In this document: positions 91-26,507 of the stretch, piece by piece | Layout: each line of letters starts with the position of its first letter | How positions within the stretch are numbered: the first letter of the stretch is position 1 | Assembly: GCA_965218435.1 (NCBI GenBank) | Contig: CBDCKW010000009.1 | Coordinates: 416,001 to 480,000 of the forward strand | Reading direction: 5' to 3' | Source: Truepera sp. | GTDB taxonomy: Bacteria; Deinococcota; Deinococci; Deinococcales; Trueperaceae | Length of the DNA: 64,000 nt | Program-made: the position numbers and the translations under genes | The notes under the pieces: generated by a model | Database searches by the model: none | What the model was told of the DNA's origin: nothing | What the model saw: the letters and a program-made list of their open reading frames with translations, nothing else

Positions 91-810
91 TTAAACTTTG
101 CTCGAGTCGGGCATCCGGCCCCGCTGCACCGCCTCGGCGACCGTTTGCGGCAGCCCCCACGCGATGATGTCAAACGCGACGGCGGCAAAGTCGTACTCGA
201 CCTTATCCATCGTGACCTTGAGCCCCGCTTCGGAAAACTTCAGGAGCGCATAATCTGCGCCCGGTTCACCGTTGAGCGACAAGCCGACCGACCCCGGATT
301 GACGACCCAGCCGCTGCTGAGTTGCCGGTAAAACGGGACGTGCGAGTTGCCGACGGCCAAAACCTTACAGCGTTGCGACGCTAACAGCTTGCCGAGGGCG
401 TCACTCGTCCCGCTCAAACCAACTCTAGCCGGAACGTCGAGCGTACCGTGAAGGGCGCGGAGGCGGCCCACCGGGGTGCTGAGGCGGAGTTGTGTGGGGA
501 GTGAACGTAAAAAAGCGACGTGTTGCGGCTCGATGACCGAGCGTGTCCAGGTTAGGATTTCGTCGGCGACGCCCGCTCTGGGCCGGTCACTGCGTGCAAA
601 GTCAAACGCGACCTGTTCGTCGGCTGCCCCAAGAGCACAGAGCACGCCTTCTTGCCTGATAAGCTCGAGCGTCTCGTTGGGTGACGGCCCGTAGCCAAGC
701 AGGTCACCTAAACAGACGATACTCTCTGCGCCCTGACGTTTAAGCTCTGCGATGACGGCCTCGAGCGCCAGCACATTGGCGTGAACATCGCTGATCAGCC
801 CTAGCACCAC
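91..810 (-). CDS. Calcineurin-like metallophosphoesterase family protein (degenerate active-site motifs)
   Basis: DVHAN, GDLLGYG and NPGSVG motifs. The usual GNHD is GAAD and GHTH is GNSH. Confidence 0.85.
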   Translation of the reverse strand: MVLGLISDVHANVLALEAVIAELKRQGAESIVCLGDLLGYGPSPNETLELIRQEGVLCALGAADEQVAFDFARSDRPRAGVADEILTWTRSVIEPQHVAFLRSLPTQLRLSTPVGRLRALHGTLDVPARVGLSGTSDALGKLLASQRCKVLAVGNSHVPFYRQLSSGWVVNPGSVGLSLNGEPGADYALLKFSEAGLKVTMDKVEYDFAAVAFDIIAWGLPQTVAEAVQRGRMPDSSKV

Positions 811-1141
811 AGCTGTTCAAGCCTTCGCTGCCTGGTTCTTGTTACGGTTGTTCGCGGCTGCAGCACTCCAAAAGTGTAGCACCGCGCCCCGGTACCCGGA
901 TAGCAAGAATCTCTCAACTTGTGGCAGAAGGTTACGGATACCTTTGCTGAACGATATGGTTTCTAACAATATGGTTTCTGACAATGCTCGGCCAGGTTGA
1001 CCTTTGCTTTTGTTGTCATGTTTATAGGTAGGTAAGAGACGTCTTCGCCCATAAGCCGCTGACTTCTGTAAGCTTAATCCCAACTTCTTTTCTGCGGCCC
1101 GCTGCGGACGCTGCCAGCTGAACTTAAAAGGCCGACAGCAG

Positions 1142-2398
1142 CTAGCCTTCGGCTTCTAACCCGGTTGTAACACCCTCTTCGAGTGTCCCCTCGTGCCTGA
1201 GGCCCGGTAAAAACGCGGCCAACACGCCCATTGCCAGCGTCAGCAGCGCCGCAAACGCAAGCAGCGCCCGAATCGAGAGTAGGTCGGCCAGCCCGCCGAC
1301 GCCCATCCCTAGCACAATCGAGCCTTCGATCCCGACAAAATACGCGCCGATCACCCGGCCCCGCAACTCTGCCGGGGTTTTACGCTGGAACAGCAGCCGA
1401 ATCGCAATAATCGCCGGAGCGTTAAAAAAGCCGATGATGGTGAAAAATAAGACGGCCAAGGTCACCGTATTCGTAAAGGTATAAAAAAGTGCCGCGAGTC
1501 CGAGGCTCCCGATACTTATCGCCATCCAGTTGCGTTCCGACAGCCGGTTGCCAAAGCTCGCCATCACAAAGCTGCCGACGACAAAGCCCACCGAGGTCAG
1601 CGCCTCTTGAATCCCGAAGGCGGTTTCGGTCGAGCCCAACACCGTAATAGTGAAGGGTAGCGTCAGGGTGTTTAAGATACCCGAGGTGAAGCCGATACCT
1701 AAGCCTATCGTCAGCACGGCCCGCAGTACCCGGTGTGTAAAGAGATAGTCGAGTCCTTTACGCATATTGCGCGAGACCATCGTAAAGGTCGTCTTTTCGG
1801 TGTTGCCCAGCTTGACGACTGTGATACCCATCAAGCAAACTCCGGCAAAAACAAAGGTCAAAGCGTCGAGCAAAAAGACCCAACCGAGTTCAAACTGCGC
1901 GGCTAACAGGCCCGCAGCAGCGTAACCGACGGCGGTCGAACCGACCGTGCTGATGGACATCAGCGAGTTGGCGGCGGCGAGTTCTTCGTCCGTGGCGAGT
2001 TCGGGTAAGACGCTTTCATACGCGGGCGAGTAAAATTGACGGGCACAGCTCGAGAACCCCACCAGCAGGTAGAGCCAGACCAGCCCGAAGGGGATGATCA
2101 GGGGAATCAGGGCGATAAACCCAGCCTGCACAAAACTGCTCAGCACCAAGATGCGTTTGCGGTCGTAACGGTCGGCGATGACCCCGCCGAAAAGTCCGAA
2201 AATGAGGCTCGGCAGCGAGGTCGCCATCAGCATCAGCCCGACGCTGAGCGCGGAACCCGTCAACCGGTAGACGAGAATTCCGGCGGTCAGGGCGGTCAGC
2301 GCGTCGCCGATGGTCGAGACGAGCTGACCGGTCCACATGAGGGTAAACGAACGGTTTCTAAAAACAGCGAACGGTGAAAGCTGCGTAGGTTGTGACAT
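1142..2398 (-). CDS. MFS transporter (DHA3/macrolide-efflux-like), paralog 1
   Basis: About 12 hydrophobic segments and GVIADRYDRK MFS motif A. Start moved to ATG 2398 (MSQPTQLSPF), which follows a GAGGA SD and matches the N-terminus of paralog 2. Confidence 0.88.
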   Translation of the reverse strand: MSQPTQLSPFAVFRNRSFTLMWTGQLVSTIGDALTALTAGILVYRLTGSALSVGLMLMATSLPSLIFGLFGGVIADRYDRKRILVLSSFVQAGFIALIPLIIPFGLVWLYLLVGFSSCARQFYSPAYESVLPELATDEELAAANSLMSISTVGSTAVGYAAAGLLAAQFELGWVFLLDALTFVFAGVCLMGITVVKLGNTEKTTFTMVSRNMRKGLDYLFTHRVLRAVLTIGLGIGFTSGILNTLTLPFTITVLGSTETAFGIQEALTSVGFVVGSFVMASFGNRLSERNWMAISIGSLGLAALFYTFTNTVTLAVLFFTIIGFFNAPAIIAIRLLFQRKTPAELRGRVIGAYFVGIEGSIVLGMGVGGLADLLSIRALLAFAALLTLAMGVLAAFLPGLRHEGTLEEGVTTGLEAEG

Positions 2399-2688
2399 GT
2401 GCGTCCTCGAGCGTCGTACTCGGGTTCGGCGTAGGGGCTTATGACCTACCGAAGCAGTACAACGGGATGGGATAAACACACGATACCATAGTTGCGAAAC
2501 AAAGTGAGGCGTAGATGTGTGAAGTTCACTGCTTTTTCAGACAATGTACTTATAGTTTCAAGCAACTCGAGCCAGGTGCCGAACACAACACCGAACAAGC
2601 CGAACGCGCTCGCAATAAGGAGAAGCGTGCGCCGCGTGACTAAAAGCAGCTTACGGTTGGGCGGTATGTCTACTTTGGCGCAATCTCC

Positions 2689-2883
2689 TCAAGTCCGCTG
2701 AAAGCTCGAGCAGCCCAGGGTAACCGGTGAGTGGCGTAACCTATACGGGAGGAGGGCGGGAGCGACGCCCCCCTGCTCACGAACGGCTTCGATCAGCGCC
2801 ACCTCCCGCAGCGCTATGGTGTCGGCTACCGGCTTAAAAAGCCAGGTGTGAGTCAGTGCTCTTTTTGCTTCCGCTCGAGTCAT
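2689..2883 (-). CDS. Possible small hypothetical protein (64 aa, MTRAEAKRAL...)
   Basis: ATG at 2883 preceded by a purine-rich AAGGGAAA. No recognisable domain. Confidence 0.25.
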   Translation of the reverse strand: MTRAEAKRALTHTWLFKPVADTIALREVALIEAVREQGGVAPALLPYRLRHSPVTLGCSSFQRT

Positions 2884-3061
2884 ATCCGTTTCCCTTCTGC
2901 TGAGAATCATCAGCCAAGCCACGCTATTTGGTGAACAGGAAGGTTGCTCGCTGCTCCTGAACGTCACGCGGTTTAAGACCTTCCGTTTAAGAACGCCCGT
3001 TGCAGCTCTAGGGTCTAGCGTGTCCACAGCACCTCTCCATTAAGTCGCCCGAACCTCAGCC

Positions 3062-4315
3062 TTACAAAGCGCCACTGGTCACAGGTTTGCTTTCTCCTGC
3101 CTCCGCCCTGAGTCCAGGTAGCACCGCCGCCACGAAACCGAGCAGCAGCGTCAAAAGCGCCGACACGATAATCAGCGTGCGAATACCGAGCAGGTCGCCG
3201 AGACCCCCGGCGAGCAAGCCGAGCACCATCACGGCGTCAACGCCCACGTAGTACGCGCCCAGCACCCGCCCGCGCAGCTTAGGCGGCGTTTTACGCTGAA
3301 ACACCGTCTTGATGGTGATAACAGCGGGTGCATTGAACAGACCGATAAGCCCTGCTAGTGCAACCGTCAGGATGACCGATTGACTCAGCGCATAAACCAG
3401 CGCCGCGCCGCCCATCCCCAACAGACAGAGCGAAATCCAGGCACGTTCTTTAAGCCGCGCTGCAAAGCTCGCCATCACCACACTGCCGAGTACGAAGCCC
3501 AACGACATCATGCCCTCTTGCACGCCGAAGACAAACTCCGAACCACCAGGAAGTTCGGACAGCACAAAAGGCAAAAAGAGCGCGTTGCCCATACCCAAAG
3601 CAAAGAAGATAGCCAAACTCAGGCCGAAGATAGCGCGGAGCAGCGGCGTCCCGAAGAGGTGTGCCAGACCGGAGCGAACATCGCCCAGCACCGTGCGAAC
3701 CCCCTCGTCGTGGTCGCTGGCGTGGTGCGGTACTGTGACGCCCAGAAGAAACGCCCCACCTATTACAAACGTCAGCGCGTCGAGCCAGAAGACTATGTTT
3801 AAGCTCAGCGACGAAGCGAGCAGGCCCGCCGCCGCGAAACCGAGTACCGATGAGGCGGTTGCACTAATGGACATAAACGAATTGGCGGCTTCCAACGCGT
3901 CGTCGTCGGCAATATCGGGCAGCACGCTGTCGTGGGCGGGCATAAAAAATTGCTGGACGGTGCTGGAAAGTGCCACCAAAATGTAAAGCCACACGATGCC
4001 GAACGGCAGCAACAAAGGAATCAGCGCGACAAGTCCCGCTTGCAAAAAGCTGGCGATAACCAGAATCTTCTTACGGTCCCAGCGGTCAACGTACACACCC
4101 GCCACCAGCCCGAACAGCAGACTCGGCAGCGACGTTGCCGCCAGCATCAACCCGACGCTTAAAACCGAACCGGTGAGGCGGTAGACCAGAATTCCGGCGG
4201 CGAGTTGGGTGAGCGAGTCGCCGAACGTCGAGACGAGCCGCCCGAACCACATGAGCGAGAACGAGCGGTTTTTGAAGACGGCGAAAGGTGAGGGCGGACG
4301 AGTGGGTTGGGTCAT
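3062..4315 (-). CDS. MFS transporter (DHA3/macrolide-efflux-like), paralog 2
   Basis: GVYVDRWDRK motif A, about 12 TM segments, and clear full-length similarity to 1142..2398. Confidence 0.9.
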   Translation of the reverse strand: MTQPTRPPSPFAVFKNRSFSLMWFGRLVSTFGDSLTQLAAGILVYRLTGSVLSVGLMLAATSLPSLLFGLVAGVYVDRWDRKKILVIASFLQAGLVALIPLLLPFGIVWLYILVALSSTVQQFFMPAHDSVLPDIADDDALEAANSFMSISATASSVLGFAAAGLLASSLSLNIVFWLDALTFVIGGAFLLGVTVPHHASDHDEGVRTVLGDVRSGLAHLFGTPLLRAIFGLSLAIFFALGMGNALFLPFVLSELPGGSEFVFGVQEGMMSLGFVLGSVVMASFAARLKERAWISLCLLGMGGAALVYALSQSVILTVALAGLIGLFNAPAVITIKTVFQRKTPPKLRGRVLGAYYVGVDAVMVLGLLAGGLGDLLGIRTLIIVSALLTLLLGFVAAVLPGLRAEAGESKPVTSGAL

Positions 4316-5529
4316 GGGGCACTTCCTTCACCAGGATTAGTTTGCGATTCAGCCGTCCCTGAGCTAAAAGCACCCTCGGCACCTTCTAAGAAATTGGATA
4401 GCAACCTCTCGGAAAAACCGAGAAGGATAGCAAGGCCCAACGTCAGCAAAAGTCCATTTTCGGTACTGGTGCCATTTGAGGAGGTTGTACCAGATGATGC
4501 CAAAGCCGCGCCGTCCCTACCTTGGACATCAGGTGTGCTAGGAGTAACTGAAGTAGACGATTCAACCGTGTAAGCCTGAGCAATTACGTTCTCCCACCCA
4601 AATTTGTCAAAAGCATCGCCTAAAACATTGATCTGCGCTAAGAAGACAATCAGCAAAATACCTGTCCAAGCAGCTAACGCACCTGTTACTGGAGCAAGAT
4701 AAAAACTCGTCCAAAACGCTCCATAGTCAGTAGGGAACGCTTGTCGGTTTCTCACCGAACGCACAAGGCGACTCAGGAGGCCACCTACAGCACCGGCAAA
4801 GAGAATAATCGCCGTACCAGGCAGAATCGCCACAATAACGATGATGAACAGTAACGACACCGCCATTAGCCAAGCCGCTTTGTTGTGCCAAGTGACGAGC
4901 CTTGTATATCCGGTATCGAGATAGTCGTACCTGACCCGCAAAGCGTCCTGAAGGAGATTTTTATATCTAACAAACTCTCTAGCGGTTATATTCATATCTG
5001 GAAGATTTAGCGCATCGATTGCTGTTGCAATACCTCGAGCTTCGGCTGTAGAAATATTTTGGAGGCTGTTCTTAATAGTGACCAGTTGAGCAGCTACCTG
5101 CTCACTCTCGTAGAACTCGACTAACCGGCGTTCAACCTCGTGAACACGTCGCCAGCCAGCTATCTCGCCGCCTCTACTCCACAGAAAAAAGTTTAGACCG
5201 AAAGCCCAGGTTTCCACGCCCTTACGTGCTTCTCTAAGGGACTCTCTTAATCCATCAATCTGCGCTCTCTGAAAATCGTTAGGTGAGCTAACTGCACTGT
5301 CAAGGTGGTTTTCAACACCTGCAATTTGTGTCAGAAGCTTTCTATGTGTGGGTGACGCGACATTGTGCCAACGACTGATCAACCAAAAGAATGTATAGAT
5401 GAGTATGACAGCGAAAGCCACGGCGAATTCGGGCTGGTCAAAGGGATTAGAAATTCCAAGCGCACTCCAGATATTCATCCTCTGTAGCTCCTGTCCGACG
5501 CTTTCCCACACGTTGCGTAATACTTGCAT
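4312..5529 (-). CDS. Hypothetical multi-pass membrane protein
   Basis: 405-aa ORF with an N-terminal TM, a helical soluble region and several C-terminal TMs ending in GFSER. Overlaps the MFS start by ATGA. AT-richer than neighbours. Confidence 0.8.
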   Translation of the reverse strand: MQVLRNVWESVGQELQRMNIWSALGISNPFDQPEFAVAFAVILIYTFFWLISRWHNVASPTHRKLLTQIAGVENHLDSAVSSPNDFQRAQIDGLRESLREARKGVETWAFGLNFFLWSRGGEIAGWRRVHEVERRLVEFYESEQVAAQLVTIKNSLQNISTAEARGIATAIDALNLPDMNITAREFVRYKNLLQDALRVRYDYLDTGYTRLVTWHNKAAWLMAVSLLFIIVIVAILPGTAIILFAGAVGGLLSRLVRSVRNRQAFPTDYGAFWTSFYLAPVTGALAAWTGILLIVFLAQINVLGDAFDKFGWENVIAQAYTVESSTSVTPSTPDVQGRDGAALASSGTTSSNGTSTENGLLLTLGLAILLGFSERLLSNFLEGAEGAFSSGTAESQTNPGEGSAP

Positions 5530-5665
5530 GATGGTTTCGGCATATCCCTTTCTCGTCCCTCTTTCTTGGACTGTCGGCGGTATAGCTATGAGTGCAACCG
5601 TATGTTTGATTTCCCGCCGCTACGAGTGAGCGAAGACCAAAACGTTTTTAGCGAGAAATCAAAAC

Positions 5666-5687
5666 AAAAGCCGGGAATGACCCGGCT
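5666..5687 (-). terminator. Intrinsic terminator after peptide array 1
   Basis: Minus strand AGCCGGG-TCATT-CCCGGCT-TTT. Confidence 0.7.
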
Positions 5688-5713
5688 GAAAAATATAAAT
5701 TTGGGTCGTAAAT

Positions 5714-5773
5714 CTAGACTTTGCGGATGGCTTCTACAACTTGCTTCGAGCTAGGGGTTTCTTTGTTACGCAT
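5714..5773 (-). CDS. Micro-ORF, 19 aa MRNKETPSSKQVVEAIRKV
   Basis: GGAGGTG SD just upstream of ATG. Homologous to three other 60-nt ORFs in the window. Confidence 0.7.
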   Translation of the reverse strand: MRNKETPSSKQVVEAIRKV

Positions 5774-5851
5774 AGTATCACCTCCTTTACATTTGGGAAT
5801 GGGCCTCGAGCCGAAAATTCAGCTCAAAAACAGCTGGTTCGGGTCGTAAAT

Positions 5852-5887
5852 TTAGTGGCCTCTATAGAATTCAGGTTGGGGTTTCAT
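5852..5887 (-). CDS. Micro-ORF, 11 aa MKPQPEFYRGH
   Basis: GGAGGTG SD upstream. Followed by the same TTACGACCC motif as sister ORFs. Confidence 0.55.
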   Translation of the reverse strand: MKPQPEFYRGH

Positions 5888-5963
5888 CGCGCTTCACCTC
5901 CTTCGCGTTTGGAAATGGGTTCGAGCCGGGGGACTCGAGCCTTTAGAGCGTTCGGGCTGCGTT

Positions 5964-6023
5964 CTATATTTTGCGGAAGACGCTCACAATCAGCTTCGAG
6001 CTAGGGGTTTCTTTAATTTTCAT
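5964..6023 (-). CDS. Micro-ORF, 19 aa MKIKETPSSKLIVSVFRKI
   Basis: GGGAGG SD upstream. First ORF after the TAGACT promoter. Homologous to 10842..10901. Confidence 0.7.
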   Translation of the reverse strand: MKIKETPSSKLIVSVFRKI

Positions 6024-6055
6024 TTTCTGCCCTCCCTTCTTGCTGAACTGACGGC

Positions 6056-6102
6056 AGTCTACAAAAGGGGGTGTGATGTTAGCGTGATGTTGCCGTGATG
6101 TT
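6056..6102 (-). promoter_or_regulatory. Promoter of peptide array 1 with three 11-bp-periodic direct repeats (SARP-box-like)
   Basis: GTGATGTT at 6073, 6084 and 6095. Minus-strand -10 TAGACT at 6056-6061, 11 nt from the proximal repeat. Confidence 0.65.
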
Positions 6103-6126
6103 GGGTTGCACACCCAAACTTAAGTC

Positions 6127-6172
6127 GCGTCACGCCTGCGTCACGCTCACATCACGGGCTGTTTTTTATGCT
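6127..6172 (+). promoter_or_regulatory. Divergent promoter of the lipoprotein gene with three 11-bp-periodic repeats
   Basis: TCACG at 6130, 6141 and 6152. -10 TATGCT at 6167-6172, again 11 nt after ATCAC. Confidence 0.6.
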
Positions 6173-6213
6173 CACCCTCGAAAAGATCACCTTTTCAACA
6201 CATCTGTAGGAGG

Positions 6214-6687
6214 ATGAGCATGAATACAAGAGCGGGTTGGGTTAGGCGGACGGGACAGGGTATGGCGGCGCTACTTTTGCTGCTGGTGCTGGGGGCGTGC
6301 GAACAGCTTGGGTCAGCGCCGGACGTTGAGCTTTCACCGGCTGCTGTGACGCTGAACAGGCCGATCTATGTAGCACCGGCGTTTAACGCTACCGCCGCCG
6401 TAACCTTCACGAGCTACCGGCGCGACCAGGCTGGCGTTACCTACGCACAGGGAACCTGGAAGATCAATAATACTTACAGCAATCTCTACACCTTTATGCG
6501 CTTTACCGGCGGTGACGGGAAATGGTATTACACCCCAAATGTAGCTCCGAGAACGAACCCCGGTGCGGGAACATGGACGGCTCGCGGGCCTGCCAGAACC
6601 TACTATTGGCAAGTTTGTGGTTGGATTTCAACGAGCAAAGGTTGGACTTCATCGTGTCCTGGAAATCCGACACGCATCTCGCTCTAG
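6214..6687 (+). CDS. Hypothetical lipoprotein
   Basis: AGGAGG SD (start 6214 or 6220). Signal peptide with LGAC lipobox. Aromatic/Thr-rich body with two C-terminal Cys. Confidence 0.8.
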   Translation: MSMNTRAGWVRRTGQGMAALLLLLVLGACEQLGSAPDVELSPAAVTLNRPIYVAPAFNATAAVTFTSYRRDQAGVTYAQGTWKINNTYSNLYTFMRFTGGDGKWYYTPNVAPRTNPGAGTWTARGPARTYYWQVCGWISTSKGWTSSCPGNPTRISL

Positions 6688-7042
6688 GCTGACAAGCGAA
6701 CTCACGCCAATCCTTTCAGATTCCTGCGGTTCGATCATCACCCTTCGCCCCGGCTGATTAAAGCGTCGGCCCAACCTAAGCGTGCGCTCTCCAGGGGCGC
6801 ACGCTCATTTGTTTCACTTTTCTGTGATACCCGGTTGCCGCACGCCTCCGGTAAGAGCGCCGAGGTGCAGTTTCCGGCAGCCGCCGAGCTGCTTTTTGGC
6901 GAAATGCATTTTTGCGACAGATACATACTTTTTCTGAAACGCTGCAAAGCGTAATACGCACCTATCAGAAAAATATGCACTATGGAGCCACCGGGTTAGA
7001 CTTCGCACGTTCACCCGACTCTAATTTTTGGTATGCTGGCGA

Positions 7043-10000
7043 ATGCTGCCTCAACTCACGCTGTTCGGCGAGGTTTTGCTCGAGACGCCCACCGGAAGCT
7101 ACACCCTCAGAAGTGGCAAGGGGGCGGCGCTGCTCGTCTATCTGGCGTACCGGGGCGGGTGGGTTCGGCGCGAATCGCTGCTGGCGCTGTTCTGGCCTGA
7201 AACACCGGAAAAGCAGGCGCGGGCGAACCTGCGGCAGCTGTTGGTCAAGCTGCGCCGGTTGCCCTATCTGACGGGGCTCGAGGTCACGGACTCGAGCGTC
7301 CGTTGGCCCGTCGCCACCGACGTTGCGGCGTTCGGAGCGGCGCTGGCGGCGGACGACTTCGCCGCCGCCGCCAAGCTTTACGCGGGGCCGCTGTCAGCCG
7401 ACTTCGACCCTGCCGGTTCCGGCAGCTTCGGCGACTGGCTTGTCGCGGAGCGCGATGGGCTTTTTTTTGCCTTTCGGAGTGCGGCGCTTTCAAGAGCGCG
7501 GGAGTTGCGGCGGCGCGGCGCGGTCGAGGAGCTTGCGGCGGTGCTGGGCGAGTTGTTACGCCACGATCCCTTCGATGAAGACGTGTTGTGCGAACGGCTG
7601 AGCGCCCTCATGGAGGCCGGTCGTTACCGTCAGGCGCTCGCCGCCTACGAAGCGTTTCGGGCGCGGCTCCGGCGTGAGCTGGACGCGGCCCCCGGCAAGG
7701 CGACGCGTGAGCTGGCCGCGCAGGTGCGCGCTGCCGAAGAGCAGAAAGCGTCTGGTCCGTCCGAGCCCTCACCGACGTTCGGCAAACGAGCCACCGACGT
7801 TCCGGCTACAGCGCCCCTGCTTCCGGATTTAGACGTCCCGGAACCGGTCGCCCCCGTTTTGTCTGCGCCGAGTTTGACGCTCCGGGCCTCGAGCGCGTTT
7901 GTGGGCCGCCGTCGAGAGCGGGATGTGGTGCAGAAGTGTCTTGCAGACCCGGCCTGCCGCCTGCTTACGTTAGTCGGGCCGGGGGGCGTCGGCAAGACGC
8001 GGCTGGCCGTTGAGCTGAGCGCCGTCACCGAAGGCTTTCCTGACGGCGTGGTGATGGTACCGCTCGAGGCCGTGTCCGACGTGCAGCTGCTCGCACCGAC
8101 CGTCGCGGCCTGTCTGGGGCTCTCTTTAGACGCGCCCGAAACCCCCGAACAACAAGTTATCGCCCACCTGAGCGGGCGGACATGCCTGCTCATCCTCGAC
8201 AACTTCGAGCAGTTACTGGAGGGTAAGGCGTTTTTGCTCACGTTACTGGCGCGCGCCCCCGGCGTCAAGCTGCTGCTGACCACGCGCGAGCGGCTGGGCG
8301 TTCCGGAGGAGGTGCCCCTCGAGCTGCGCGGTCTTTCGCTCGAAGGTGAAGGTAGCCGACCCGCCGACGCCGTGGCCCTCTTTTTGCACGGTGCCCGCCG
8401 GGTCGGGGTGACCTTGCGGCGTGAGTCCGACCTGCAACACGCCGCCGACATCTGTGCGCTCGTCGAAGGGGTACCGCTGGCGCTCGAGCTGACGAGCGCG
8501 TGGCTCCGGCTCCTCACCCCCGCGGAGGTGAAAACGGAGCTGAGCGCGGGCCTCGACCTGCTCGTCGCGCCGGACACCGAACTTCCCGAACGCCACCGGA
8601 ACATGCGGCGGGTGTTAGCCCGTTCGTGGGCACGTCTGGAGGTGGACGAACAGCGCACCCTGGCCCGCCTGTCGGTTTTTCGGGGCGGTTTTACGTATAC
8701 GGCGGCGAAGGCCGTCACCGGCATGTCGCTGGGCGTGCTGCTGGCGCTCGTTCACAAATCGCTGCTCTACCGGGCGGCGGACGGGCGTTTTACGCTGCAC
8801 GAGTTGGTCCGGCAATACGCCGACGAACAGCTCACGGCGGAGGGTGTACTCGAGCAAGTCAGCGCCGAGCACGCCCGTTACTATCTGGGGCTGCTGGGAA
8901 CGCTCGAGATGTGGAGCGACCACGAAGCGGCCTCGCTCGCCGTACTCGACGCCGAGCTGAACAACCTCCGCGCCGCGTGGCGGTGGGCCGTCCCGAGTGG
9001 GCGCTTACCGGAGTTCTGGGTGCCGAACGACGCGGTGATCTTTTTCGACCGGCGAATGCGGTTTTTGGAAGGGCTCGAGTTTTTCGAGGCAGTTTCGGGT
9101 TGTTTTGACCTGGCAGACCCGGAGTACCGGGAGACGCTCGCAAACCTGCGAATCGACCGGGCGTGGTTGCTGTTTCGTTTGGGACGCTACGCCGAGGCTG
9201 AAGCGCTCGCCGAAGATAGTCTCGACGCGGCGCTGAGTACAAAAACCCGGATGAAAGCCTACAACACGCTCGGCATCATCACCCGGCAACAGGGCCGTTA
9301 TCTGCTGGCTGTCCAGTATATCGAAGGGGCGCTGGCGCTGGCCCGTGAACTCGGCGAGGTGACGCGCATTGCAGCGTACCTTAACAACCTGGGGGCGACG
9401 TGTATCACGTTGGGTGAATATGACCGTGCGGAAGAGGCTTCACGAGCTGCTCTCAACCTGCACCGGGCTGCTGACGATACTTATGGCGTCGTGATGACCT
9501 TGCTCGATCTGGGCAGTATCCATATCTACGGTACTCAACCTGCTTACGCGCGCGCCCTAGAGGTTGTCGAAGAGGCGCTCAAGCTAGCCCACGAGCAGGA
9601 ATTTGCCGATCTCACCTCAGTGCTTCTAATTACGAAGGCGCGAGCGCTCTACCGGCTAGGTGATACGGTGCAGGCTGAACTTGTTTGCCACAAAATCATG
9701 AGCCTTACCACCAAACCGGGGCATACCTGGGACGAAGCGCAGGTTTTTAACCTACTGGGCTACATCGCTACACAAAGAGGCGAGCAGCTTAAGGCGAGGC
9801 AGTATCTGGTCAAAAGTTTTTTGCTGGCTTGGCAGCACCGAGAAATACCTACAATACTTGAAGATATGCTGGCCTTAGCCGAGCTTGAGTTCTCCGAAAA
9901 TGCCCACGAACGAGCCCTTCAACTGCTCGTCGGGGTGATGAGACACCCTGCCGCGTCAGCGGTAAACCGCTGTGATGCCGAGCGGTTTCTTCGGCAGTCG

Positions 10001-10105
10001 GGAATACATCAGCACCTGCTGCAAACCGATAGTGTGCCGCTCGAGCGCTGGGTTCCCACTTTTTTTGGCCTCGAGGGTGAAATAACTGAAAGAGAAATGA
10101 ACTAG
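7043..10105 (+). CDS. SARP/AfsR-like STAND transcriptional activator (wHTH-BTAD-NB-ARC-TPR)
   Basis: N-terminal LLVYLA...RESLLALFWPE, BTAD region, Walker A GPGGVGKT, Walker B LLILDNFE, GVPLALEL, C-terminal TPRs. Likely leaderless start at ATG 7043 after TATGCT. Confidence 0.92.
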   Translation: MLPQLTLFGEVLLETPTGSYTLRSGKGAALLVYLAYRGGWVRRESLLALFWPETPEKQARANLRQLLVKLRRLPYLTGLEVTDSSVRWPVATDVAAFGAALAADDFAAAAKLYAGPLSADFDPAGSGSFGDWLVAERDGLFFAFRSAALSRARELRRRGAVEELAAVLGELLRHDPFDEDVLCERLSALMEAGRYRQALAAYEAFRARLRRELDAAPGKATRELAAQVRAAEEQKASGPSEPSPTFGKRATDVPATAPLLPDLDVPEPVAPVLSAPSLTLRASSAFVGRRRERDVVQKCLADPACRLLTLVGPGGVGKTRLAVELSAVTEGFPDGVVMVPLEAVSDVQLLAPTVAACLGLSLDAPETPEQQVIAHLSGRTCLLILDNFEQLLEGKAFLLTLLARAPGVKLLLTTRERLGVPEEVPLELRGLSLEGEGSRPADAVALFLHGARRVGVTLRRESDLQHAADICALVEGVPLALELTSAWLRLLTPAEVKTELSAGLDLLVAPDTELPERHRNMRRVLARSWARLEVDEQRTLARLSVFRGGFTYTAAKAVTGMSLGVLLALVHKSLLYRAADGRFTLHELVRQYADEQLTAEGVLEQVSAEHARYYLGLLGTLEMWSDHEAASLAVLDAELNNLRAAWRWAVPSGRLPEFWVPNDAVIFFDRRMRFLEGLEFFEAVSGCFDLADPEYRETLANLRIDRAWLLFRLGRYAEAEALAEDSLDAALSTKTRMKAYNTLGIITRQQGRYLLAVQYIEGALALARELGEVTRIAAYLNNLGATCITLGEYDRAEEASRAALNLHRAADDTYGVVMTLLDLGSIHIYGTQPAYARALEVVEEALKLAHEQEFADLTSVLLITKARALYRLGDTVQAELVCHKIMSLTTKPGHTWDEAQVFNLLGYIATQRGEQLKARQYLVKSFLLAWQHREIPTILEDMLALAELEFSENAHERALQLLVGVMRHPAASAVNRCDAERFLRQSGIHQHLLQTDSVPLERWVPTFFGLEGEITEREMN

Positions 10106-10551
10106 GGGCCTCGAGCCGAAACCGGTAGGATGATTGTGCCGTCATCATCCTTGGGTAACGGGGACCTATCTGCTGGCTCTGACTGCAATCTATCTTTGTG
10201 AGCAGGTTCCCAAAAATTAGGGAGAGTGCTGTCATCTTTGTCGCTGCTATAGATGTAGAGCTGATAGCCTCTGTAAGTAGCCTGAAGACCCCATTCATCT
10301 TTGCGATTGACTGAACTGGGTTTATCAGGCAAGTTCGGATCAGGGTCAGTTACAGGGGGCAGAATCTTCCAACAACTCAATCTTTCTTGCAAGTCTTTAT
10401 CTGCCCACCTGTTTATCAGAGGAATGTAGCTCGTAATTTTATGTAATGAGCAGATATAGACGGGCTGAAAACTCACGCCGTCAAAAGAAGCTTCAAGACA
10501 CTTTTCCGTATCCGTATCGAAACGTAAATGCATGGTATCCATCTTTAGCAA
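10102..10551 (-). CDS. Hypothetical protein (149 aa)
   Basis: AT-rich ORF with GGAGAGG upstream. Convergent 4-nt overlap with the regulator stop. No domain recognised. Confidence 0.55.
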   Translation of the reverse strand: MLKMDTMHLRFDTDTEKCLEASFDGVSFQPVYICSLHKITSYIPLINRWADKDLQERLSCWKILPPVTDPDPNLPDKPSSVNRKDEWGLQATYRGYQLYIYSSDKDDSTLPNFWEPAHKDRLQSEPADRSPLPKDDDGTIILPVSARGP

Positions 10552-10661
10552 CCCTCTCCAAGTCGTTAAACAGTTGAGCGGACTATAGCAGAGCCTGGGA
10601 CGAAAAGAAATTCTAAAAAAGTAACGAGTGGTTTAGCTTCTCGAGCACGCCTCTAAAGCTT

Positions 10662-10684
10662 AAAAAGCCGAAAATGACCCAGCT
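10662..10684 (-). terminator. Intrinsic terminator after peptide array 2
   Basis: Minus strand AGCTGGG-TCATT-TTCGGCT-TTTT. Homologous to 5666-5687 with G-U-compatible substitutions. Confidence 0.6.
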
Positions 10685-10710
10685 GAAAAATATAAGTTTG
10701 GGTCGTAATT

Positions 10711-10770
10711 TCAGTGGACTCTAATACCGTTTACAACTTGCCCCGAGCTAGGGGTTTCTTGTTTACGCAT
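10711..10770 (-). CDS. Micro-ORF, 19 aa MRKQETPSSGQVVNGIRVH
   Basis: GGAGGTG SD upstream. Homologous to 5714..5773. Confidence 0.7.
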   Translation of the reverse strand: MRKQETPSSGQVVNGIRVH

Positions 10771-10841
10771 ATCGTCACCTCCTTCATGCTTTTGAAGAGG
10801 GCTCGAGCCGGAGGACTCGAGCCTTTGGTTCAGGTTACGTT

Positions 10842-10901
10842 TTAGCCTCTGCGGAAGTTGCTCACAATCAGCTTCGAGCTGGGGGTTTCTTTGGTTTTCA
10901 T
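10842..10901 (-). CDS. Micro-ORF, 19 aa MKTKETPSSKLIVSNFRRG
   Basis: GGGAGG SD upstream. Homologous to 5964..6023. Confidence 0.7.
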   Translation of the reverse strand: MKTKETPSSKLIVSNFRRG

Positions 10902-10933
10902 TCTGCGCCCTCCCTTCTTTCTGAACTGAGGGC

Positions 10934-10969
10934 AGTCTACAAAAGGGGGCGTGATGTTGGCGTGATGTT
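10934..10969 (-). promoter_or_regulatory. Promoter of peptide array 2 with two 11-bp-periodic repeats
   Basis: GTGATGTT at 10951 and 10962. -10 TAGACT at 10934-10939 with the same 11-nt spacer as array 1. Confidence 0.65.
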
Positions 10970-11145
10970 GAGTTTTATCTGTCTGGGGACGTAAAAAGTT
11001 GCTTGAGAAGTTAGTCTCTGTAGCTAAAACTCGGCTCTCAGCTAAAGGTCGATAGATAGAACACCCCGGCGTACGGGCTTTTTGGGGGCTCGAGTTCGCC
11101 GCTCTCTCACTATCAGTTACAGGATTCGGGGGTGGGGCTCGAGGG

Positions 11146-11712
11146 TTCAAACTTAACCACCACGGACTCGAAGTCGGTGGGTTGAAGAGCTAGCTGGAAG
11201 CCGGAGGTCACTCTAAAGAGATGTTCTCCTCGCCGCTTTGCTTGTGAGCATCGTAGTGGTTGTTGATGTACTCGTCGATCATCTCATCGGTCACGTTCCC
11301 ACTCGTGGCGCTAAAGTAGCCTCTCGCCCAAAAGTGACGTCCCCAATACCTTTTCCTCAACTCTGGAAACTCCTGTTGCACTTTCCTTGAACTCCGCCCC
11401 TTCGCCCGTTTGATAAATTCGCTCACGGCTAGGTGTGGTGGAATCGACACAAACAGGTGGATGTGGTCACTCGACACCACCCCATTCAGAATCTTGACCC
11501 CTGGCTCTTCAGCTACCTGAGCAATAATTGTCCGTACTCGCCGCTGCAACTCACCCCTCAGCACTCTATAGCGGTACTTCGTGATCCAGACCAAGTGATA
11601 GCGGTGGTGGTACAGCGTATGACTTCCCTTGGTATAGCGTTCCATCACTGCAATTTACACGCTGAAGCGTCGCCCGTCTCGAAGACGGGGGTTTGAATCC
11701 ATTTAGAGGACT
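11146..11712 (-). mobile_element. IS200/IS605-family insertion sequence, tnpA only
   Basis: Y1 transposase flanked by two related subterminal hairpins, each preceded by TTCAA on the minus strand. TTGAT lies just outside the left end. Boundaries approximate. Confidence 0.8.
11208..11648 (-). CDS. tnpA: IS200/IS605 Y1 (HUH) transposase
   Basis: YHLVWITKYR, DHIHL (HUH), FWARGYF, and catalytic Tyr in EYINN. Confidence 0.95.
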   Translation of the reverse strand: MMERYTKGSHTLYHHRYHLVWITKYRYRVLRGELQRRVRTIIAQVAEEPGVKILNGVVSSDHIHLFVSIPPHLAVSEFIKRAKGRSSRKVQQEFPELRKRYWGRHFWARGYFSATSGNVTDEMIDEYINNHYDAHKQSGEENISLE

Positions 11713-11828
11713 ATCAATAAAGTTTATAGAGCTGGGCGCTGCAACTCACTATCGCAGCGCCTCGCTCTATCAAAACAGCTCGCCCTAGCAAGCCGATGGA
11801 CATGTCTTCTCTAAAAATCCGGTCTCGT

Positions 11829-12851
11829 CTAGCTCAAATAATGGGTCAGCAGCGCCAAAGACGCCTCGACATCATTTTTGGCGACCATCTCGGTCACGGT
11901 ATGCACGTAACGTGACGGAATAGAGAGCGTCAGGCTGGCAACGCCGCCCCGTGAACGCTGTATCGTACCCGCGTCGGTGCCGCCTAAGGGCAACAGTTCA
12001 AACTGATACGGCACGCCGTTTTCTTCAGCAAGGGCGATAAACTCGTCTAACAGCCAACGCGTACTGATCGAGGCCGAATCCATTACCTTGAGCGCGACGC
12101 CGCCGCCGAGCTGTGTGACCCGCTGCTCACTCGGCGTGCCCGGAATGTCAACCGCCAGCGTGGTGTCGAGCGCGACGCCGATGTCGGGCTCGACGGCGAA
12201 CGCAGCCGTCTGTGCGCCGCGTAAACCGACCTCTTCTTGAACGCTGAAGACGCCGTACACGTCGTGTGCCGGATTTTTGAGCGCCTTTAACAGCTCGACT
12301 AAAATAAAGCAGTTGACCCTATCGTCCATCGCTTTACCGCTGACGACCTCACCCAAATCTACAAACGGTTGCCGGAGTGTCACCGGGTCGCCGAGCCGCA
12401 CCTTTTCTTTTACGGTGTCGGACTCGAGACCGGTATCGACGATAAACTCGGGTAGTTTCGGTACCTTTTCGCGTTCGTCGGGGTTAGAGATGTGGATAGG
12501 TTTGACGCCGGGGTTCATCACCCCGATGAGGTCGCCGCTACTTGTATGAACCGTGACCTGCCGCGCGAACAAGTTACGCGTATCGAAACCGCCGAGGTTT
12601 TGCACGCGTAAAAAACCGTCGTCATCTATAAAGCGCACGTAAAAACCGATCTCGTCCATGTGCGCCGAGAGCATCACCCGCTTTGCCCCTTCTTTTGAAC
12701 CCTTTTTATGCGCGATCAGGTTGCCCAGCGTGTCGGTCTCCAAGCTGTCTACAACGCCCTCTAACTCGCCGCTGATCAGCTCACGAATCGCCTCTTCACG
12801 GCCCGGAACCCCGGCCCCTTCGGAAAGCCGCTGTAAAAGTTCGTAGTCCAC
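11829..12851 (-). CDS. M42 family metallo-aminopeptidase
   Basis: AHMDEIG, KAMDDR, QEEVGLRGA, GGTDAG and RYVHT motifs. Confidence 0.93.
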   Translation of the reverse strand: MDYELLQRLSEGAGVPGREEAIRELISGELEGVVDSLETDTLGNLIAHKKGSKEGAKRVMLSAHMDEIGFYVRFIDDDGFLRVQNLGGFDTRNLFARQVTVHTSSGDLIGVMNPGVKPIHISNPDEREKVPKLPEFIVDTGLESDTVKEKVRLGDPVTLRQPFVDLGEVVSGKAMDDRVNCFILVELLKALKNPAHDVYGVFSVQEEVGLRGAQTAAFAVEPDIGVALDTTLAVDIPGTPSEQRVTQLGGGVALKVMDSASISTRWLLDEFIALAEENGVPYQFELLPLGGTDAGTIQRSRGGVASLTLSIPSRYVHTVTEMVAKNDVEASLALLTHYLS

Positions 12852-25910: not shown

Positions 25911-26507
25911 TCACGTTTCACCATACGCCGACGATAGAAAGGTCCAGCTTGGGAACGTCTCTTCGAGGTAAGGAAGATGTTGATTCCAGCGTTCAGCTGA
26001 ACAAGTTTTTATGGGTAAAAGGGTCGGGCGCATCTGCTCGAGCCGATACCCCCAGCTAAACCTGGCGATAGTTTCAACCGTGCGCGTTCTGCCGACATCG
26101 GGACAAATCGCAAGAAACGTTTCAGCTAGCCAGGTTTCATCAGAACGGGGCGGATTGGGGCCGGGAGCGTCGAACATGGTGGGTTTCTCACCGAACGGCG
26201 TAAATGGCAGCTCGAGGCCGTGCTGATTCGGCGTCTGGTCTATCGCCGTCCGCGTTTCTCCAGAGAGCGTATCGTTGACCGTAATGAGCTGAATCCAACC
26301 CATCGTCGCGTAGTAACCGGGGCCTTCATACTCAATCTCAGCCTCGCAAACAGGAAAACCTTTGATGAGTTCCAAGTCAAAGGGTAAATTGAGCAGACCG
26401 AAACCCCAAGCTTGCGGGTTCGTATTCGCTTCGTAGTGGACAACCACGCGTCCTGAAAAACCGCGCAAGCTAAACGGCATCGTTAAAGCTGGGCCTTCTG
26501 AAAACAT
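25911..26507 (-). CDS. Hypothetical protein inserted in the iol cluster
   Basis: ORF of about 200 aa with protein-like composition. Start uncertain (26540/26507/26480). Confidence 0.7.
   Translation of the reverse strand: MFSEGPALTMPFSLRGFSGRVVVHYEANTNPQAWGFGLLNLPFDLELIKGFPVCEAEIEYEGPGYYATMGWIQLITVNDTLSGETRTAIDQTPNQHGLELPFTPFGEKPTMFDAPGPNPPRSDETWLAETFLAICPDVGRTRTVETIARFSWGYRLEQMRPTLLPIKTCSAERWNQHLPYLEETFPSWTFLSSAYGET

Follow-up and report, generated by a model that had tools for sequence, protein, structure and literature searches.

Very short genes placed under a dedicated regulator are known from several bacterial loci. ComR/ComS, Rgg/SHP and PlcR/PapR are RRNPP-type peptide/receptor cassettes with signal-less micro-peptides. 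The microcin C locus (mccA-mccC) combines a structural gene that is a very short open reading frame (micro-ORF), a terminator after it and an MFS exporter, and PSM-alpha is a tandem micro-peptide operon under AgrA. AfsS, the product of the small gene adjacent to that of the large SARP regulator AfsR, is a protein of 63 amino acids. The 64,000-nt window analysed here (Truepera sp., contig CBDCKW010000009.1, from a genome of 4.8 Mb; all coordinates below are window positions unless a contig is named) carries a rare accessory island with a new family of 19-codon genes, apparently connected to a large SARP in the way that afsS is to AfsR. PMC10936776 describes a 22-bp AfsR box that overlaps the -35 element of the afsS promoter, and a rule for SARP targets in general: the direct repeats stand at a distance of 11 or 22 bp from each other, and 8 bp separate the 3' repeat from the -10 element.

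Five micro-ORFs, all on the minus strand, form two arrays in the island and lie exactly where a first-pass annotation, made from the sequence without database searches, had placed them. Array 1 consists of micro-ORF A1 (5964..6023; 19 codons and TAG; MKIKETPSSKLIVSVFRKI), whose Shine-Dalgarno (SD) sequence GGGAGGG is at 6030-6036, ORF C (5852..5887; 11 codons; MKPQPEFYRGH) and micro-ORF B1 (5714..5773; 19 codons and TAG; MRNKETPSSKQVVEAIRKV). Array 2 consists of micro-ORFs A2 (10842..10901; 19 codons and TAA; MKTKETPSSKLIVSNFRRG) and B2 (10711..10770; 19 codons and TGA; MRKQETPSSGQVVNGIRVH). The codon table confirms the other features claimed for them: the four 60-nt ORFs share an invariant ETPSS with a single synonymous CCT/CCC change, and all five ORFs end in [I/F/Y]-R-x-x-stop although TAG, TAA and TGA are all used. 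The claim that each ORF has a strong SD holds for the four 19-codon ORFs, which have GGAGG-N7-ATG in common, and an SD is present in ORF C as well, but ORF C itself is now read differently. When aligned with the B copies, it shares their SD and 3' end but shows an internal deletion, and the frame in which it carries the GAAACCCC motif differs from theirs. Neither L099 nor L100, two related contigs, has a counterpart of ORF C, which is probably a decayed B-type copy.

This micro-ORF feature is real and well beyond chance. The 15-mer GAAACCCCYAGCTCG, searched with <=2 mismatches, has five matches in the window against 0.34 expected; four of them are the 19-codon ORFs and the fifth, at 26400, has 2 mismatches. 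Across the 4.8-Mb genome, an 18-mer finds the same four places and one further place with 2 mismatches, the reversed-pattern control giving 3. The two arrays represent one duplicated cassette, with 86% identity over 143 nt for the A unit, 80% over 79 nt for the B unit and 91% over 46 nt for the terminator region. ORFs of the A type carry Leu11 and those of the B type Gln11, and the tandem A/B pair is kept in all three sources of the family.

Relatives were found by a pattern scan of a metagenome collection, which led to four loci. Three of them, L098, L099 and L100, are contigs from a single metagenome assembly and carry homologous cassettes; the fourth, L101, was discarded as a chance match, the pattern falling within a long ORF. 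The ORFs of these contigs are MKTKETPSSKLIVSMYRGR, MKTKETPSSKQVVSGIRIH, MKTKETPSSKLVVSVIRGR, MKTKEVPSSKLIVSIYRAG and MKTKETPSSKQVVSMFRGH, a sixth copy being identical in L098 and L099. Together with the four window ORFs, these five distinct ORFs make up a family set of nine. In a hidden Markov model (HMM) built from these nine members, A1, B1, A2 and B2 score 45.8, 45.4, 48.8 and 45.2 bits, respectively.

All nine distinct ORFs are exactly 19 codons long, with TAG, TAA and TGA all occurring at codon 20, and 9/9 copies have a GGAGG or GGAGGA SD 7 nt before the ATG. Residues M1, E5, P7, S8, S9, V13 and R17 are invariant in the nine copies. The codon-level analysis that had been suggested as a check reveals that conserved residues are kept through synonymous codons: AGA, AGG, CGC and CGT for Arg17, CCA, CCC and CCT for Pro7, GTA and GTG for Val13, CTG and TTG for Leu11, AGC and AGT for Ser14 (7/9 copies), and two codons for Lys10 where it is kept. 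With start, frame, length and stop maintained in five further copies, the proposal that the ORFs are coding genes is borne out, and the micro-ORFs are very likely translated.

Head and tail of the peptides do not change at the same pace. When the window is compared with L100, identity is 90-93% over codons 1-14 of the A copies and only 55-78% over the promoter, spacer and 3' flank; the head, better kept than its flanks, is under purifying selection. L100 and L099 are 90-93% identical in promoter, spacer and 3' flank, whereas their identity over codons 15-19 is just 67% in A and 53% in B, 12 of 30 nt being mismatched (binomial P 1e-6 versus flanks and 8e-4 versus a 15% baseline). The tail, except for residue 16 and Arg17, thus outpaces the neighbouring non-coding DNA, which points to diversifying selection or to exchange among copies. 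The encoded peptides are hydrophilic and cationic (GRAVY index -0.94 to +0.11; net charge +2 to +4), which makes them unlikely membrane-inserting toxins. No hydrophobic segment that could belong to a signal peptide was seen in them by eye.

Both arrays are preceded by promoters of a distinctive type. At array 1, three direct 11-mers, ACATCACGGCA, ACATCACGCTA and ACATCACACCC, occupy 6069..6101 on the minus strand (their 11-bp phase comes from a repeat search), and a -10 hexamer, TAGACT (6056..6061, minus strand), lies 7 nt past the last of them. The array 2 promoter (10934..10968, minus strand) is shorter by one 11-mer, with ACATCACGCCA and ACATCACGCCC followed by 7 nt and TAGACT. A third promoter, divergent from that of array 1 (6127..6172, plus strand), has the three 11-mers GCGTCACGCCT, GCGTCACGCTC and ACATCACGGGC, 7 nt and TATGCT, and faces a lipoprotein gene; it also precedes the lipoprotein orthologues in L099 and L100. 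The consensus of the repeats is ACATCACGCnn, with 2-3 direct copies in each of the three window promoters. The pattern TCAC[GA]-N6-TCAC[GA]-N10-TANNNT has 3 matches in the whole 4.8-Mb genome, all at this locus, and its three-box version has 2, both in the intergenic region between array 1 and the lipoprotein gene. All 10 box promoters (3 in the window and 7 in L098, L099 and L100) have the same spacing, which stays while the boxes themselves drift from CATCACG to CATAACG.

The window promoters fit the published rule for SARP targets, the 7-nt gap becoming 8 nt when the heptamer is read as TCACGnn. Since the ORFs lie behind promoters of the published SARP architecture at both arrays, the earlier idea that the peptides are outputs of the regulator is well supported by the sequence, and direct control of the peptide genes by the adjacent SARP is probable. 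Elsewhere in the genome, at G000:C9:3884840-3884967 (outside the window), two oppositely oriented ATCAC[GA]-type direct-repeat pairs with 11-bp spacing lie upstream of a response-regulator/histidine-kinase operon. They were considered as sites linked to the island and set aside as unrelated, being probably the own sites of that response regulator.

Each cassette has the order 11-bp repeats, 7 nt, -10 hexamer, leader of ~30 nt, SD, ORF A, hairpin, SD, ORF B and intrinsic terminator. The inter-ORF hairpins, found by repeat search and folding, are at 5917..5940 in array 1 (GGCTCGAG...CTCGAACC) and at 10799..10822 in array 2, both on the minus strand. This small stem is kept in 4/4 cassettes in an alignment fold, with 0 compensatory pairs. 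The intrinsic terminator of array 1 (5669..5687, minus strand; AGCCGGGTCATTCCCGGCT followed by TTTGTTTTG) was found by a terminator scan, and its hairpin is conserved in L098, L099 and L100. That of array 2 (10666..10684, minus strand; AGCTGGGTCATTTTCGGCT and TTTTAAGC) is a weaker, terminator-like copy recognized by eye and missed by the scan, although the region is 91% identical to its array 1 counterpart. In L100, ~55 nt separate the terminator U-tract from the start of the next gene, and no -10-like hexamer is visible there by eye. Palindromes centred on CTCGAG (GGCTCGAGCC and variants) recur in intergenic hairpins (5800-5945, 10799-10822, 11087-11101 and elsewhere), and also within genes.

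The putative activator is encoded between the two arrays (7028..10105, plus strand; likely start ATG 7043) and has a putative winged helix followed by BTAD, NB-ARC and TPR parts. In Pfam searches, BTAD (PF03704) scores 63.9 bits against a cut-off of 22.1 (E 2.7e-17, residues 105-234), NB-ARC 24.7 bits against 23.5 and TPR_12 58.4 bits against 30.1. GPGGVGKT, which is presumably the Walker-A motif, is legible in the translation. The winged helix is less well marked: Trans_reg_C of Pfam does not match at E <= 0.01, and EmbR 31-255 is matched weakly, in colinear order, by residues 20-229 (E 0.03); against the PDB, the regulator has no match at E <= 0.001. It is the best BTAD match of the genome, where one other protein passes the cut-off (34.7 bits) and a further one falls short of it. 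Its alignment with the 70% identical L100 orthologue begins at ATG 7043. A TATGCT hexamer lies 5 nt upstream of this ATG, so the regulator mRNA would be leaderless, and no activator boxes are visible upstream of the regulator.

Orthology with AfsR is not supported by the NCBIfam AfsR model NF053617, with which the regulator scores 45.3 bits against an equivalog cut-off of 1430. In a survey of homologues, identity to its closest relatives is only 30-45%. The family Trueperaceae is rich in large SARP paralogues, with up to 23 matches per genome and none above 45% identity (a tally that includes genome G339, flagged as unpublished), and a same-genus genome lacks an orthologue of the regulator. 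In PADLOC, it matches only a generic TPR model (39 bits) and mad8 (14.9 bits), and seven other proteins are unmatched.

The peptide genes have a narrow distribution. At the nucleotide level, the array was not found in 60 relatives; only matches of 20-34 nt appeared, in 5 genomes, and these were taken as noise (E >= 0.0015). A strict SD-ATG-ETPSS pattern run on 364 genomes of the phylum gives the four matches of the own genome and one chance-like match in G008, the reversed control giving 1, and the same pattern has 0 matches in viral contigs. The peptide family was thus found in none of the 363 other genomes of the phylum searched. With the peptide HMM, only the four own copies score (45-49 bits) among 128 family genomes, the rest reaching <= 20 bits, mostly within long ORFs. 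The genome-wide scatter that would have spoken against the first-pass annotation is therefore not seen, the micro-ORFs being confined to this locus. A six-frame search of the genome for ETPSS or K[ED][TS]P[ST]S[KR] revealed no parent gene from which the peptides could derive. The flanks of 73 distant regulator homologues contain no ETPSS-type micro-ORFs; an ESPAA match in L081, SD-led but of different length, was rejected as chance-like. Paralogous micro-ORF pairs were sought in 79 loci, and none is convincing beyond the window locus, one pair having turned up in L045. In the literature searched, no account was found of a peptide family like this one or of a large SARP under the control of a peptide.

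Small ORFs behind similar boxes may occur more widely. A crude scan around 20 paralogous large-SARP loci finds 11-bp-phased repeats, a -10 hexamer and then SD-led ORFs of 8-60 amino acids at 7 sites in 6/20 loci, with 2 and 3 sites in shifted-offset controls; 2/7 of these ORFs resemble lipoprotein signal peptides by eye. Examples are L129 7015-7210, L136 (minus strand) about 5207-5370, L130, L131, L133 and L140. These include ORFs of 48 and 29 amino acids, which look like lipoprotein signal peptides with very short mature parts, and an ORF of 18 amino acids.

The three metagenome contigs reveal a cassette content in flux. L100 is syntenic with the window. The cassette content is A-C-B and A-B in the window and A-B at the first site of L100, whose second site (3552-3730) has a box promoter that drives a 141-amino-acid gene directly, over a decayed remnant (TTG GTT ACA AAG TAG). 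A fourth box promoter in L100 (10969-11436) precedes an ORF of 135 amino acids without homologue in the window. L099 has a single A and a terminator before the homologue of the 149-amino-acid gene of the window, and A-B at the other site; its regulator (660-1649, minus strand) is a TPR-only frame of 329 amino acids, a deletion of ~2 kb having taken the promoter and the SARP and NB-ARC parts. In L098 (1-360), the M42 peptidase gene, one A cassette and a gene of the 404-amino-acid type found in L100 are joined, with no regulator between them. L098 and L099 could correspond to real deletions by recombination between the two direct-repeat cassettes, or to assembly chimeras.

The accessory island itself extends over ~9.3 kb, about 2480-11830, and contains a 112-amino-acid ORF, an MFS gene, the gene of a 405-amino-acid protein, array 1, the lipoprotein gene, the regulator gene, the 149-amino-acid gene, array 2 and an IS200-type transposase gene. 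Its accessory nature follows from the comparison with the same-genus genome G005, in which 1.55 kb separate the flanking Metallophos_2 and M42 peptidase genes and the resident MFS gene is the only one in between.

The lipoprotein gene (6214..6687, plus strand) has a lipobox, LVLGAC, and a likely start at ATG 6220, 6 nt past AGGAGG. The AlphaFold2 model of its product is a beta-sandwich (mean pLDDT score 78) with only weak ApaG/PDIP38-like matches, the best with a TM-score of 0.42. It has only 3 homologue clusters in a collection of 5.8 billion proteins, and one homologue found in the protein collection lies on a 3.87-Mb contig. Downstream of array 2, the 149-amino-acid protein gene (10102..10551, minus strand) belongs to no Pfam family; its AlphaFold2 model is poor (pLDDT 43), the Atlas leads to PF03640 at 0.87 only, and an HMM of it finds only weak matches, in 6/363 other genomes. 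Its L100 orthologue is directly behind a box promoter without micro-ORFs. Between L100 and L099, the mature lipoprotein and the 149-amino-acid protein are 38% and 30% identical, respectively, and neither is alignable at the nucleotide level.

The first gene past the array 1 terminator (4312..5529, minus strand) encodes a membrane protein of 405 amino acids that belongs to no family and leads only to unnamed clusters in the Atlas. At the same position, L100 carries a non-homologous gene (8326-9540, plus strand; BLASTP E 0.63) for a 404-amino-acid protein with a signal peptide and multiple transmembrane segments, also without family. The gene at this position looks like a swappable cassette. The start of the island MFS_3 transporter gene (3062..4315, minus strand; 417 amino acids; Pfam MFS_1/MFS_3) overlaps the stop of the 405-amino-acid gene. 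Its product has sub-threshold NCBIfam matches to EntS, Tap, Mef and Tet(V), and with 83% identity between the window and L100 it is the best-conserved island protein, ahead of the regulator (70%), the lipoprotein (60%) and the 149-amino-acid protein (41%). The annotation had spoken of a downstream MFS pair. Only the proximal member belongs to the island: the distal one (1142..2479, minus strand) is a resident gene, 90% identical to its orthologue in G005. Both are paralogues with 56% identity, and L100 has only the island one.

Directly upstream of array 2 lies the IS200-type (Y1_Tnp) transposase gene (11208-11648, minus strand). L100 and L098 do not have it there; in both, the M42 peptidase gene is immediately next to the box promoter.

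The reading favoured here, whose whole chain (SARP activation, peptide output, read-through, MFS export and recognition role) may be given a probability of roughly 40%, starts from an island that would carry an AfsR-type large SARP and its apparent private regulon. A signal, together with ATP, would cause the sensor part (NB-ARC and TPR) to release the SARP domain, and the freed domain, like AfsR at afsS, would bind the repeats overlapping the -35 element and recruit RNA polymerase. Activation would lead to a large output of cationic 19-mers, each made of a conserved 14-residue head, MKTKETPSSK[L/Q][I/V]VS, and a hypervariable tail in the fixed register x-[F/I/Y]-R-x-x-COOH. Limited read-through of the terminators would add the membrane protein and the MFS_3 exporter behind array 1, and the product of the 149-amino-acid gene behind array 2. 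The peptides would be the main product, most likely exported by the island MFS_3 pump, with the head as a handling part and the tail serving strain-specific recognition, as signal or antagonist. Taken as a step on its own, the export of the peptides by the MFS is a tentative proposal. This reading is ranked first because no island protein is better conserved than the MFS, the products under common control are envelope proteins and the tails evolve like specificity determinants, and also because box-driven small ORFs recur at the paralogous loci (7 sites versus 2 and 3 in the controls).

Several points weigh against it. The peptides are hydrophilic and without signal peptide, and their export by the MFS is deduced from gene neighbourhood only; transcription start, termination and translation are likewise predicted from the sequence. 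The genome has a second BTAD protein, and binding of the regulator to the boxes is a prediction. The sample is small, with three related sources, two of them from one metagenome assembly. At the second site of L100, the box promoter is found without micro-ORFs, so the cassettes are dispensable there. L099 keeps three intact micro-ORFs beside its TPR-only regulator, and L098 has a single cassette with no regulator within ~8 kb upstream, on a contig that ends ~150 nt downstream of the ORF. In these two contigs the peptides may be independent of the regulator, unless they are decaying variants or assembly chimeras. Furthermore, a first crude survey of 81 loci found no enrichment of box-driven micro-ORFs (10/66 sites versus 8/43 and 5/55 in controls).

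The best-surviving alternative, although an unlikely one, is an autoinducing circuit. The 19-mers or their C-terminal parts would be ligands of the TPR sensor, and their binding would lift autoinhibition, so that the peptides would activate the promoters of their own genes as well as the rest of the island, in a STAND-type counterpart of the RRNPP, ComR/ComS and Rgg/SHP systems. With the peptide genes on both sides of the receptor gene and behind its presumed boxes, the wiring that positive feedback needs is in place, and the tails are hypervariable as in pherotype systems. In 9/9 copies, Arg17 and a hydrophobic residue stand at a fixed distance from the free C-terminus, a constancy that would suit a TPR groove recognizing a C-terminal peptide. 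The segment of the regulator that differs most between the window and L100 is the C-terminal TPR part (51% identity versus 74-82% elsewhere). In AfsR, according to PMC10936776, the NOD and TPR domains inhibit the SARP domain. However, the dN/dS of the C-terminal TPR part is 0.22, with dS saturated, and between L100 and L099, whose tails differ strongly, this part is not more diverged than the rest (dN 0.145 versus 0.125), so that its co-divergence with the tails is equivocal. One receptor would have to deal with four or five different tails per genome. Family scans of the island reveal neither an export signal nor a protease or oligopeptide-permease family for processing and import, and the L099 peptides persist though the regulator has lost its DNA-binding and NB-ARC parts. 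A fuller version, in which MFS_3-exported 19-mers with [F/I/Y]-R-x-x-COOH tails would be read by the TPR part of a peptide-sensing STAND switch, making a strain-specific autoinduction or kin-recognition loop with the hypervariable lipoprotein and the membrane proteins as outputs, appears more doubtful still.

Another possibility, which seems improbable, is that the peptides are intracellular effector micro-proteins, modulating a target inside the cell as proposed for AfsS, the MFS and the membrane proteins being unrelated cargo. The wiring is indeed that of AfsR to afsS, with a small-protein gene beside a large SARP and a box that overlaps the -35 element, and soluble, cationic peptides without export signal would agree with a cytoplasmic role. 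A tail that diverges faster than its flanks would nevertheless be unusual for the ligand of a conserved intracellular target, and a lipoprotein is among the co-regulated products, with membrane proteins encoded downstream.

It could also be supposed that the micro-ORFs are leader peptides, upstream ORFs whose translation, or stalling at R-x-x-stop, would control terminator read-through to the membrane-protein/MFS operon and to the 149-amino-acid gene, the MFS being a drug or metabolite pump induced in this way. The cassettes do lie between a promoter and genes of the same strand, each ending in a terminator, and in L100 the promoter drives the 141-amino-acid gene directly, without cassette. 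In their fixed length and in the Arg kept close to the stop, the ORFs resemble arrest peptides, and the MFS has its sub-threshold similarity to the efflux pumps Mef, Tet(V) and Tap. The RNA does not support this: beyond the inter-ORF hairpin and the terminator there is no conserved structure and no conserved antiterminator pairing (0 compensatory pairs, folding z-scores of -2.5 and -0.2), and the stop codon is 24-29 nt before the terminator stem, with no conservation of the intervening sequence between window and metagenome contigs. Attenuation does not need two tandem ORFs with optimal SDs or a conserved A/B pair, and tails that change faster than flanks are not expected of a stalling motif. 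A control by leader peptides is therefore quite improbable.

The first-pass annotation had also considered precursors of ribosomally synthesized and post-translationally modified peptides (RiPPs), in which the head would be a leader and the tail a core modified by enzymes encoded elsewhere before MFS export. The conserved N-terminus and variable C-terminus have this look, SARPs are presented in PMC10972967 as typical cluster-situated activators of antibiotic genes, and NB-ARC/TPR proteins that belong to RiPP systems are weakly similar to the regulator, far below threshold (80 bits for HaaT, cut-off 1125; 53 bits for FxSxx-COOH TPR, cut-off 300). This alternative loses ground on the enzymes: family scans recognize no modifying enzyme among the island proteins of the window or L100, and since the genome has no box promoters outside this locus, an enzyme gene located elsewhere would not be co-regulated. 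The peptides have no Cys, a core of ~5 residues would be very small, and RiPP precursors are on the whole a very doubtful explanation.

That the cassettes are repeated non-coding DNA (promoter/terminator units or a small RNA) with incidental ORFs is most improbable, for although the four window copies hardly differ in the nucleotides of GAAACCCCTAGCTCG, which stands in another frame in ORF C, the nine ORFs show coding evidence at the codon level and strong SDs at a fixed 7-nt spacing in 9/9 copies, and there is no Rfam match at E <= 1, no conserved structure and no covariation.

The interest of the island goes beyond its own peptides. The input sensed by the NOD-TPR half of AfsR-type regulators is treated as an open question in PMC10936776, and the island bears on it as a clean test system, with one large SARP, three locus-specific promoters and a few chemically synthesisable 19-mers, on which it could be tested directly whether peptides control such regulators or are no more than their output. 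The island also illustrates that real 19-codon genes escape standard gene callers; the collection of 5.8 billion proteins contains the neighbouring proteins of the locus. If the peptides are ordinary regulated products, the locus would still be a well-documented case of AfsR-afsS logic outside actinomycetes. If the peptide-sensing switch were true, the 19-mers would give AfsR-type sensors their first identified class of ligand and, taken with the box-driven micro-ORFs beside paralogous regulators, would point to a widespread undescribed peptide-signalling family outside Bacillota.

When compared with known systems, the island shares with the FxSxx-COOH systems a fast-diverging small protein with a motif fixed from its C-terminus, encoded beside an NTPase/TPR protein, as these systems are described in PMC7159879. 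However, the motif is [F/I/Y]-R-x-x rather than F-x-S-x-x, the island has no zincin peptidase or radical SAM gene, and the TPR match is generic (53 bits, cut-off 300). With microcin C and PSM-alpha it has in common very short SD-led genes followed by a terminator and then by accessory or export genes, and tandem unannotated micro-ORFs under one dedicated activator. It differs from them in lacking an MccB-like or other modifying enzyme and in its peptides, which are unlike amphipathic helices or membrane-active peptides.

The likeness to RRNPP systems concerns the layout only: a tiny peptide gene beside that of a TPR-containing transcription factor, apparently under its control, with a variable C-terminal part that could set specificity. 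Instead of an HTH-TPR protein, the putative receptor is a STAND ATPase with a SARP DNA-binding domain; the cationic peptides are hydrophilic, and processing or import genes are lacking nearby.

AfsR-afsS of Streptomyces coelicolor is also resembled by the island, but not in every respect. The regulator is not an AfsR orthologue (45 versus 1430 bits), the organism is outside Actinomycetota, the targets are 19-residue peptides encoded in duplicated A/B cassettes on both sides of the regulator gene instead of one protein, and the apparent regulon also takes in a lipoprotein gene. The likeness lies in the same domain order (putative DNA-binding part and BTAD, NB-ARC, TPR), in a small-protein target gene that adjoins the regulator gene, and in 11-bp direct repeats overlapping the -35 element at a fixed short distance from the -10 element, as set out for AfsR in PMC10936776.

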